Source: a virus
Taxonomy: Duplodnaviria > Heunggongvirae > Uroviricota > Caudoviricetes
DNA: 3,819 nucleotides
Reading direction: 5' to 3' (one strand)
IMG/VR virus record: IMGVR_UViG_2778261707_000024
Under the pieces are notes generated by a model, which did not search any database, was not told the origin of the DNA, and saw only the letters and a list, made by a program, of their open reading frames with translations. Positions 1,881-2,483 of this stretch are shown here, one piece after another. A program made the translations under genes and the position numbers. Position 1 is the first letter of the stretch, and every line of letters begins with the position of its first letter.

Positions 1881-1926
1881 TCCCCAACAACAAGGATCTT
1901 GTTAATCTGGATATCCCCAACAACAA
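1881..1926. repeat. Perfect 13-bp direct repeat TCCCCAACAACAA (1881-1893 and 1914-1926)
   Basis: Read directly from the sequence. The two copies start 33 bp apart, about three helical turns, just upstream of the cassette ORF. A third TCCCC lies at 1871-1875. Confidence 0.6.
1904..1916. repeat. Left copy of 13-bp inverted repeat (AATCTGGATATCC) bracketing the cassette
   Basis: It is the exact reverse complement of 2471-2483 (GGATATCCAGATT). The core GGATATCC is itself palindromic, and the 5-bp flanks are inverted. Confidence 0.6.
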
Positions 1927-1940
1927 TAAGAGTATTGAAT

Positions 1941-2456
1941 GTGATCGCTGAATTAACGGCAGCAATGACGGCTATTCGTGAAACCGCCCAGATTGCAAAA
2001 CTAATGAACGAGGCAAAAACTCAAGCTGAAGTAAATGCGGCTATTGGTGAACTGAACTCAAAGCTTGCATCTATTCAGCGCGAATGCGTGTCTCTCGTTG
2101 AGCTGGTGGGCACTTATCAAGAAATAAATGCTTCTCTCAAAGCTAAAATTGCAGAATTTGAAAACTTTGAGGCTCAGACGGAAGGTTATATCCTTAGCCA
2201 ACTTGAGTCGGGAACTTTTGTGTACTCGAAGGAGGTAACCGTGAACGGCGGCAGCATAATCATGCATCTTTGTCCAAAATGTTTTGGACAAAAGATAGTA
2301 TCGATACTTCAGCCATTCCCGGTTAGAGAATATGAATTTTTTCATAAAAGCAGGTGCCTGTACTGTGAAAATCAGTTTCTTATGAATAAAAATCCGGATT
2401 ACGTATCACCTCCATCTATTGAAGAGTTGGCCAGAAAACTGAACGGCAATCTGTAG
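1941..2456 (+). CDS. Hypothetical protein with N-terminal coiled coil and C-terminal CxxC-x24-CxxC zinc ribbon; opposite-strand moron gene
   Basis: Long + strand ORF ending in TAG at 2454-2456. The plausible start is GTG at 1941 (AAGAG 9 nt upstream) or ATG at 1965; the TTG at 1788 in the ORF track would overlap the exonuclease remnant and is unlikely. The product has a heptad-like helical N-terminus (AKLMNEAKTQAEVNAAIGELNSKLASIQRE...) and a CPKC...CLYC zinc ribbon. The region is visibly more A+T-rich than its flanks. I recognise no family. Confidence 0.6.
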   Translation: MIAELTAAMTAIRETAQIAKLMNEAKTQAEVNAAIGELNSKLASIQRECVSLVELVGTYQEINASLKAKIAEFENFEAQTEGYILSQLESGTFVYSKEVTVNGGSIIMHLCPKCFGQKIVSILQPFPVREYEFFHKSRCLYCENQFLMNKNPDYVSPPSIEELARKLNGNL

Positions 2457-2470
2457 ATTTTTACTGTTAT

Positions 2471-2483
2471 GGATATCCAGATT
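2471..2483. repeat. Right copy of 13-bp inverted repeat (GGATATCCAGATT) bracketing the cassette
   Basis: Exact reverse complement of 1904-1916. It lies 15 bp downstream of the cassette ORF stop. Confidence 0.6.

Follow-up and report, generated by a model that had tools for sequence, protein, structure and literature searches.

A Rip1-family gene in a cargo-swapping slot of a Rac/Qin-like lambdoid prophage and the co-varying inverted repeat that flanks it

What is a lone gene that lies between two perfect inverted repeats and points against the leftward early operon of a prophage? This question is raised by a 3,819-nucleotide (nt) stretch of DNA from a virus record (Caudoviricetes, IMGVR_UViG_2778261707_000024), the whole of which is called the window here. 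The original prediction, made from the sequence alone, regarded positions 1904-2483 as a horizontally acquired cassette that encodes a candidate for a novel small protein. We found that window bases 1-3780 are a 100% match to the left end of the Escherichia coli O157:H7 Sakai prophage Sp6, and many other O157:H7 genomes were also 100% identical over these bases. The open reading frame (ORF) at 1941-2456 is ECs_1504 of Sp6. Our reading is that this ORF encodes a Rip1-family antiphage protein, a single-gene moron in a slot that closely follows the early-left promoter of a Rac/Qin-like lambdoid prophage, and that the flanking repeats belong to the slot, as a selected long-range pairing element. 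We put the probability of this reading at about 0.8. The gene and the site that probably serves its translation are as follows.

1941-2456, plus strand, GTG start: ECs_1504, the rip1-like gene, 171 amino acids (aa) (ORF and RefSeq; PHROG 1244)
1927-1931, plus strand: likely ribosome-binding site AAGAG, 9 nt before GTG 1941 (read from the sequence)

To which family does ECs_1504 belong? A profile made from 30 of the 109 related protein clusters matched chain L of PDB entry 9oox with E 8.9e-24 over residues 6-152 of 170 (hmmsearch). This entry, HK446 Rip1 ('ring interacting pore 1') with the T6 small terminase, was the one strong match of the profile among solved structures, and the single sequence of ECs_1504 also found it (phmmer, E 3.6e-7). 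With hhalign, the probability was 99.0% (E 5.9e-18) against HK446 gp37 and 99.4% (E 4.2e-21) against gp30 of Pseudomonas aeruginosa JBD30, and tblastn recovered the JBD/DMS3/D3112, HK620 and HK446 genes. Meanwhile, a Foldseek search against PDB returned the 9oox chains alone at E<=0.001, the next match having E 0.21. The match to 9oox_M had E 7e-7, probability 1.0 and a template-modelling (TM) score of 0.73 on the target, over 120 columns with 28% identity. Furthermore, ten columns are invariant among ECs_1504, HK446, HK620 and JBD30, namely Q46, L66, Y83, V94, Y95, Q124 and the four Cys. Sequence, profile and fold thus place ECs_1504 in the Rip1 family, whose wider membership by profile came to 3,332 representative clusters at E<=1e-3. 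The fold comparison proposed in the original prediction did give a confident identity, but the identity is the known Rip1, and the idea of a novel protein of no recognised family has to be given up.

The Pfam, NCBIfam and PADLOC libraries gave no significant family for ECs_1504, and its only match in PHROGs was PHROG 1244, a family of unknown function. The coiled-coil matches in Pfam (TMF_TATA_bd and the BrxA N-terminus) were dropped, being all weak and below the cut-off. In addition, every one of the 109 related clusters, which come from Escherichia, Salmonella, Citrobacter, Klebsiella, Enterobacter, Edwardsiella, Arsenophonus and other genera, is labelled 'hypothetical'. A literature search on ECs1504 and hkaP, the HK620 gene, yielded unrelated papers only.

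GTG 1941 is the start of ECs_1504 in RefSeq. Of the two starts considered before, this one is supported, because the homologues keep the N-terminus MIAELSAAM despite synonymous nucleotide differences; their leaders also keep the ribosome-binding site as AAGAG or GAGAG. The AlphaFold model (predicted local distance difference test, pLDDT, 91.4) has helices H3-23 and H28-79, followed by six strands. Beta structure dominates the C-terminal half, a domain that contains a four-Cys zinc ribbon; 24 residues stand between C111-P-K-C114 and C139-L-Y-C142, and none of the 30 homologues differs at any of the four Cys. The highest Kyte-Doolittle 19-residue mean in ECs_1504 was 1.13, so that no transmembrane segment was found. 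Its N-terminal helices are amphipathic, with a hydrophobic moment of up to 0.44 (residues 7-24) and 0.41 (37-54), and this region is compatible with a predicted pore-forming region. In several respects the original prediction had described the gene correctly: a single plus-strand ORF between the arms and against the leftward int-xis-recE genes, a CPKC-x24-CLYC ribbon, a helical N-terminal half and no transmembrane segment. The ORF also contains a perfect 11-bp palindrome, TTTGTCCAAAA-TG-TTTTGGACAAA (2269-2279 / 2282-2292), which encodes CPKCFGQK and is intact in the 77%-identical A19 homologue (L009 4453-4476).

ECs_1504 is borne by a prophage, and its homologues are found in prophage immunity regions of several genera. 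Those of Salmonella, Citrobacter and Klebsiella adjoin the repressor and are opposite in orientation to at least one flanking gene. HK446 Rip1 is located between a ral-like gene and N and is opposed to the leftward operon, and HK620 hkaP is annotated as 'putative superinfection exclusion'. In JBD30, gp30 is flanked by terL and by the gene of a DNA-binding protein (gp29), the position which a review assigns to the small terminase subunit. No conserved partner gene was seen for ECs_1504, and its neighbours vary among the contexts compared.

How might such a protein act? The primary study of Rip1 is that of Patel et al. 2026 (Nature 651:1060), which reportedly describes abortive infection. According to two published sources, Rip1 is a prophage-encoded single-protein defence that is harmless by itself; its escape mutants lie in the portal for phages of Pseudomonas and within the small terminase for coliphages; twelve monomers encircle an 11-mer of the small terminase; the protein is amphipathic in its N-terminal part, and its C-terminal half touches the ring; and the assembly is a pore, with dye release from liposomes and holes in cells (PMC13434031; PMC12908700). 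Judging from the homologous Rip1 proteins encoded by HK446 and by Mu-like prophages of P. aeruginosa, we infer the following course for ECs_1504. The lysogen would produce the protein in a harmless soluble form. When a superinfecting phage in late expression makes ring oligomers, either small terminase or portal, the C-terminal zinc-ribbon/beta domain would bind the exterior of the ring, and about a dozen copies would gather round it. The N-terminal amphipathic helices would then form a pore in the inner membrane, and the cell would die or lyse before the progeny mature. Defence activity, trigger, stoichiometry and pore formation are all predicted for ECs_1504 from its relatives. The Rip1 family is unusual mechanistically, since one protein senses the assembly rings of the phage and also acts as the pore-forming effector. 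In addition, Sp6 is a defective prophage, and ECs_1504 may therefore serve as a domesticated host defence.

Several points weigh against this reading of the protein. First, ECs_1504 and the characterised Rip1 proteins share 27-30% identity only, and the trigger specificity is therefore not transferable. Second, 9oox resolves 124-126 of the 164 Rip1 residues and lacks the first ~40, so that the pore-forming part could be compared by sequence only. Third, a promoter scan of the window called no consensus sigma-70 promoter upstream of ECs_1504; expression in the lysogen is suggested by the conservation of the leader and by the TATAAT that relatives carry at the corresponding site. Fourth, PADLOC (2023) has no model for the family.

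The second part of the question concerns the repeats. The elements around the gene that bear on it are the following.

1827-1903: conserved slot leader, common to prophages with different cargo (by alignment)
1904-1921 (perfect 1904-1916): left arm of the long-range inverted repeat, overlapping a -10-like TAATCT (TATAAT in relatives)
2466-2483 (perfect 2471-2483): right arm of the long-range inverted repeat, beginning 10-15 nt past the stop codon
2482-2494, minus strand (2494->2482): perfect rrn-type boxA TGCTCTTTAACAA, 0 mismatches, abutting the 5' side of the right arm as read on that strand
2496-2519: hairpin GCCGGA-N12-TCCGGC, no T-run (from the sequence)
2902-2930, minus strand (2930->2902): pL-like early-left promoter TTGACA-17-TATAGT, 11/12 matches

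We located the perfect 13-bp inverted repeat AATCTGGATATCC / GGATATCCAGATT at the positions first given, 1904-1916 and 2471-2483; its imperfect extension reaches 26 nt at 81%. The perfect part fits tightly round the ORF, as the start codon follows the left arm after 24 nt and the right arm follows the stop after 15 nt. Is it a product of chance? The early estimate of about 1 in 10 agrees with our count, in which 10.7% of 300 dinucleotide shuffles held such a repeat, a figure that ignores the position of the arms near start and stop and their conservation elsewhere. The arms recur across genera and co-vary; thus, the view that they are merely suggestive was too cautious, and a chance origin was rejected.

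For the covariation, we used 31 distinct arm pairs in an ungapped alignment of an 18-pair helix. Across them 79.6% of the helix was paired, and double changes were found at 11 of the 18 pairs. The covariation score was 0.193 compared with 0.087 in shuffles, none of 500 shuffles reached it, and slid-partner controls gave at most 0.102. Furthermore, cognate arms paired better than permuted partners in all of 10,000 permutations. The arm sequences are related by descent, and these covariation and permutation figures are therefore indicative and are not probabilities. Complementary variants are GGATGACT / AGTCATCC of the CFT073 type, in which AATGGT and ATTGGT switch in both arms between L065 and L071, CTGAATACC / GGTATTCAG (L055), CTGGGTAT / ATACCCAG (L158) and GTAACCCTC / GAGGGTTAC (L035, L105). 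The flanking inverted repeats are a selected, co-varying long-range pairing element.

Does this element belong to the gene or to its site? The slot leader (1827-1935) occurs in 2,392 of 5,426 E. coli genomes, and the rip1-like block in 700 of them. In many enterobacterial prophages the slot closely follows the early-left promoter, and its trailer CCAGATTGTTAAAGAGC is invariant among the relatives compared. The same arms flank homologues of ECs_1504 with 45-70% protein identity in Salmonella, Citrobacter, Klebsiella, Kosakonia, Scandinavium, Symbiopectobacterium and Enterobacter. Moreover, at least seven unrelated genes are found as cargo between this leader and trailer, with further cargoes among 120 viral contigs retrieved by the leader motif; the inverted repeat round the slot, with its various cargoes, was seen at loci L001, L009-L015, L017-L038 and L039-L158. 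The Rip1 genes of HK446, HK620 and JBD30 lack the inverted repeat of the slot. The repeat is conserved with varied cargo and absent at these three genes, and therefore it belongs to the slot and not to the gene. For the same reason it does not mark the boundaries of a cassette, as had been supposed. In the comparison of presence and absence that had been suggested, an artificial empty-site query was covered to >=80% in none of the 5,426 E. coli genomes. The alternative cargo genes include the following.

L010, 3559-4005: alternative cargo gene
L035, 2005-2499: alternative cargo gene
L037, 2002-2481: alternative cargo gene
L013, 2608-3042: alternative cargo gene
L011, 2608-3120: alternative cargo gene
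L038, 1909-2412: alternative cargo gene
L012, 2583-2783: alternative cargo gene

The other cargoes include two-transmembrane proteins of 148-164 aa, the ECs1072 family, a 170-aa protein with a signal peptide (CFT073) and a 167-aa protein. The two-transmembrane proteins are accompanied by proline-rich mini-ORFs. PADLOC gave nothing significant for the alternative cargo proteins, with one marginal Csx1 match (E 0.0096); Pfam had no match for the two genes searched, and NCBIfam named only the ECs1072 family. These cargoes are candidates for defence or exclusion genes. The slot motif (leader GGCGAGGTGG-N6-9-ATTCCCCAAC ... TTAAAGAGC) can be used to harvest such candidates from enterobacterial prophages. 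The original prediction had expected a single-gene defence function between int-xis and the immunity region, and this expectation fits: the site exchanges genes, and ECs_1504 is a candidate defence gene by its homology with Rip1.

Three other repeated or conserved sequences lie in or beside the slot. A perfect 13-bp direct repeat TCCCCAACAACAA at 1881-1893 and 1914-1926, 33 bp apart, straddles the left arm with one copy upstream and one downstream, and both copies are kept in the leaders of other genera. A 7-bp direct repeat, TTGTTAA, at 1899-1905 and 2482-2488 overlaps the outer ends of the arms and mimics a target-site duplication. Its right copy is part of boxA, and its left copy is not conserved, being CGGTTAA, GTATAA or another variant in most relatives. 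Finally, an element of ~45 nt at 1827-1871 (GTGTGCTTTCGTGTTGTGTGCCTGCTTTTTACCACGTCAGGCGAG) is conserved well beyond the slot; it has 97.8% identity in many genomes, including the Rac-like prophage of BL21, and is recognisable upstream of ymfI in e14 of K-12 (L159 ~5420-5460).

What could a paired element of this kind do, and in which transcript? The sequence TGCTCTTTAACAA is an exact match to the rrn boxA consensus. It has 0 mismatches, lies downstream of the pL-like promoter in the sense of the leftward early transcript, and is conserved across genera between the hairpin or terminator and the right arm. In place of the T-less hairpin of the window, most relatives have one that also serves as a canonical plus-strand intrinsic terminator of the cargo gene. 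In PhiR29_1, for instance, a terminator was called at L001 5029-5048, and the pL-like promoter is at 5165->5138, ~100 nt upstream of boxA. Among the non-Watson-Crick cells of the arm alignment, 43 would be G.U on the minus strand versus 9 on the plus strand, a count that leans to the minus strand, that is, to the leftward transcript. The long-range helix was present in the minimum free energy (MFE) and centroid folds of both strands, with z = -8.4 for minus and z = -4.7 for plus. A comparison of the duplex energies of the two strands did not separate the helix-forming strand.

Tentatively, with the odds somewhat short of even, the repeat may be a long-range helix in the pL transcript. In this proposal boxA would recruit NusB/NusE before a ~550-nt untranslated antisense stretch and the helix would loop that stretch out, against Rho polarity and/or as an RNase III site, so that any cargo is tolerated in antisense. 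Consistent with it are the covariation and the cognate pairing of the arms, the excess of G.U cells on the minus strand, the perfect boxA that abuts the minus-strand 5' arm, the pL-like promoter upstream of it, here and in PhiR29_1, and the stability of the minus-strand fold. However, the plus-strand fold holds the helix too, and relatedness among the sequences, together with a few indel-containing rows, inflates the G.U count. BoxA recruits NusB/E and modulates Rho termination in either direction (PMC12360218), and it could thus promote termination as well as prevent it. In addition, the A-rich tract read as boxA may be the mere upstream arm of a bidirectional terminator, and mismatched helices of 13-24 bp are marginal RNase III substrates.

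Another explanation, which we consider unlikely, is that the repeat joins the 5' and 3' untranslated ends of the cargo messenger RNA (mRNA) as a panhandle before the terminator, and so stabilises or insulates the message. The layout agrees with it, as the -10-like element and the ribosome-binding site enclose the left arm, and the stop codon and the terminator enclose the right arm; the plus-strand folds contain the helix, and the same arm covariation applies. It fits less well because a transcription start ~7 nt past TATAAT/TAATCT would exclude positions 1-9 of the outer arm, and positions 6-10 co-vary, so that co-varying positions are probably upstream of the start. Moreover, the wobble bias favours the other strand, and a promoter upstream of the arm was not detected in the scan. 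We tentatively prefer the leftward-transcript reading and regard the panhandle as its main alternative.

A broader proposal can be built on the leftward transcript, and it is more doubtful than the helix itself. The early-left operon of enterobacterial lambdoid prophages might contain a standardised cargo slot, made of a leader, a trailer (terminator or hairpin plus boxA) and a helix that loops out the antisense RNA. As in ribosomal RNA (rRNA) operons, boxA with Nus factors and the helix might carry the transcript through or allow its processing by RNase III; defence genes could then be swapped without polar effects, and the other cargoes would be uncharacterised defence genes. If this is true, rip1-like defence genes are exchangeable without polar effects on the prophage early operon. 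The slot suggests a cis-acting RNA solution to hosting an antisense gene inside an operon.

Could the protein instead be a zinc-ribbon regulatory or nucleic-acid-binding prophage protein with no defence role? Zinc ribbons are frequent in nucleic-acid-binding proteins, the gene adjoins the immunity region, and the profile had a weak PDB match to the zinc ribbon of the poxvirus RNA polymerase 30 kDa subunit (E 0.94). However, the full-length homology and the fold match lead to Rip1 and to nothing else; the gene is dispensable, with unrelated genes taking the same slot, and it is present in just 700 of the 5,426 genomes. This alternative is very improbable.

The remaining explanation depends on the neighbourhood of the gene, which is as follows.

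1-1119, minus strand: int
1088-1366, minus strand: xis
1419-1816, minus strand: recE (exonuclease VIII) 3' remnant (Pfam PF16473)
2571-2801, minus strand: DUF1391 (YdfA-like) gene, first gene of the leftward early operon (Pfam PF07151, E 6.6e-30; annotation)
3039-3515, minus strand: RacR-like prophage repressor (RefSeq naming)
up to 3780: ydaS-like gene, cut at 3780, where one end of a multi-copy IS3-family element follows

In the original prediction, the insertion point coincided with the missing 5' end of the exonuclease gene. We found that the match to intact recE extends as far as 1816 and that the match to the O55:H7 block begins at 1815. The break at 1815/1816, with a 2-nt microhomology (CC), is a deletion junction, at which the slot leader meets 400 bp from the 3' end of recE; it lies 88 bp outside the left arm and 126 bp upstream of ECs_1504. 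From 1815 on, the block is 100% identical in O55:H7 CB9615 (L007) and ~97% identical in STEC1587 (L008), and in both genomes full-length recE, a DUF1482 gene, dicB and a ~500-bp spacer come before it. Therefore, Sp6 lost the 5' part of recE by deletion when ECs_1504 was already in place. The idea of an acquired cassette that cut the exonuclease gene fails here, and with it goes the main argument for an insertion event. In an O145 relative, the interval from the slot to dicB holds a DicF small RNA (Rfam 76.9 bits; L010 3032-3083, minus strand); the corresponding region is deleted in Sp6, and no DicF was detected in O55:H7 L007.

The GC content of 1904-2483 is 0.405 and that of the ORF 0.419; the repressor gene has 0.426, int 0.453, the recE remnant 0.489 and the DUF1391 gene 0.502. 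The block is indeed more A+T-rich than the int and repressor flanks, as had been noticed, but the difference is modest, and GC is clearly higher only in the recE remnant and the DUF1391 gene.

The mobile-cassette model, in which 1904-2483 was horizontally acquired with terminal inverted repeats and its insertion removed the recE 5' end, is largely refuted and scarcely tenable: the perfect 13-bp repeat does closely bracket one ORF, TTGTTAA does resemble a target-site duplication and GC is below that of the recE and DUF1391 neighbours, but the same block stands beside intact recE-DUF1482-dicB with the recE junction outside the repeat, the outer arms lie within flanks conserved round unrelated cargoes, the left TTGTTAA is variable in most relatives and hence there is no conserved duplication, no empty site was found in the 5,426 genomes, and there is no transposase, the slot being always the same, next to the repressor or pL. 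A transposable element or miniature inverted-repeat transposable element (MITE) was likewise rejected; the repeats are present, but conserved duplication, empty sites and multiple insertion sites are not.

Elsewhere in the window, TAGGN-N4-NCCTA palindromes (e.g. TAGGCTACGCCTA) occur at 2902-2946 and 3538-3618, on either side of the repressor gene. Those at 2902-2946 overlap the strong leftward promoter-like site TTGACA-17-TATAGT; they surround the pL-like promoter and resemble repressor operators. The two sets are probably OL and OR, the operators at which the RacR-like repressor would bind. Positions 3781-3819 are the end of the multi-copy IS3-family insertion sequence (TGAACCGCCCCGGG...) that splits the ydaS-like gene; this end is absent from Sakai, and the exact junction was in no complete genome of the collection. 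An Rfam scan of the window at the gathering threshold gave no match, and a scan for intrinsic terminators in the window called none.

How does this locus compare with known systems? A literature search found no described lambdoid defence hotspot with leader, boxA and co-varying helix; as far as such searches show, the slot with boxA and co-varying helix is undescribed and is a more novel part of this locus than the Rip1 homologue.

Insertion sequences, MITEs and integron cassettes also have inverted repeats round a short cargo, or varied cargoes at one site. Unlike them, the slot lacks a transposase or integrase partner and has neither empty sites nor further sites of insertion, and its arms flank the cargo rather than forming a compact attC-like site as in integron cassettes.

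The sieB gene of lambda and Rac occupies the same niche as ECs_1504, a lone gene opposed to the early-left operon beside the immunity region, and the 'putative superinfection exclusion' label of HK620 hkaP rests on this sieB-like niche. An abortive-infection outcome, as for SieB of lambda, P22 and Rac, would be expected for ECs_1504. However, SieB is an integral membrane protein, whereas ECs_1504 has no transmembrane segment and no sequence relationship to it. Membership in the SieB family was rejected on these grounds, with no match in Pfam, NCBIfam or PADLOC.

Lambdoid morons, such as those of HK97 and HK022, are autonomous units of promoter, gene and terminator. Like them, the insert is one gene, absent from close relatives, with its own leader, a modestly lower GC and, in most relatives of the slot, its own intrinsic terminator. 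The difference is that the slot is fixed: leader and trailer are constant, the coding part and the inner arms vary, and the flanks carry a co-varying long-range inverted repeat.

In the rRNA operon leader, boxA is followed by the long-range 16S processing stem. Similarly, the exact boxA TGCTCTTTAACAA of the slot is followed by the 5' half of the helix, whose 3' half is ~550 nt downstream, and, as in lambda nutL, boxA comes shortly after an early promoter. Unlike in these systems, the enclosed RNA is antisense to a protein gene and is not a structural RNA, and an N-like protein and boxB were not identified at the slot.

Finally, the closest comparison is with Rip1 of the HK446 gp37 and JBD30 gp30 type. 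ECs_1504 differs in belonging to a distinct enterobacterial subfamily (PHROG 1244) with 27-30% identity, in a C-terminal tail (PDYVSPPSIEELARKLNGNL) that is absent from HK446, and in a slot with conserved leader, inverted repeat and boxA, which the HK446, HK620 and JBD30 genes lack. The two are alike in size (164 aa for Rip1 and 171 aa for ECs_1504), in long amphipathic N-terminal helices followed by a beta-rich four-Cys C-terminal domain, in the invariant Q46, L66, Y83, VY94-95, Q124 and CxxC...CxxC, and in being a single prophage gene opposed to the surrounding operon, the HK446 copy lying in the equivalent early-left position. ECs_1504 is a new member of the known Rip1 family with its defining computational features, and this gives a predicted function to a gene that is 'hypothetical' in ~13% of complete E. 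coli genomes (700/5,426), including the O157:H7 reference strains.

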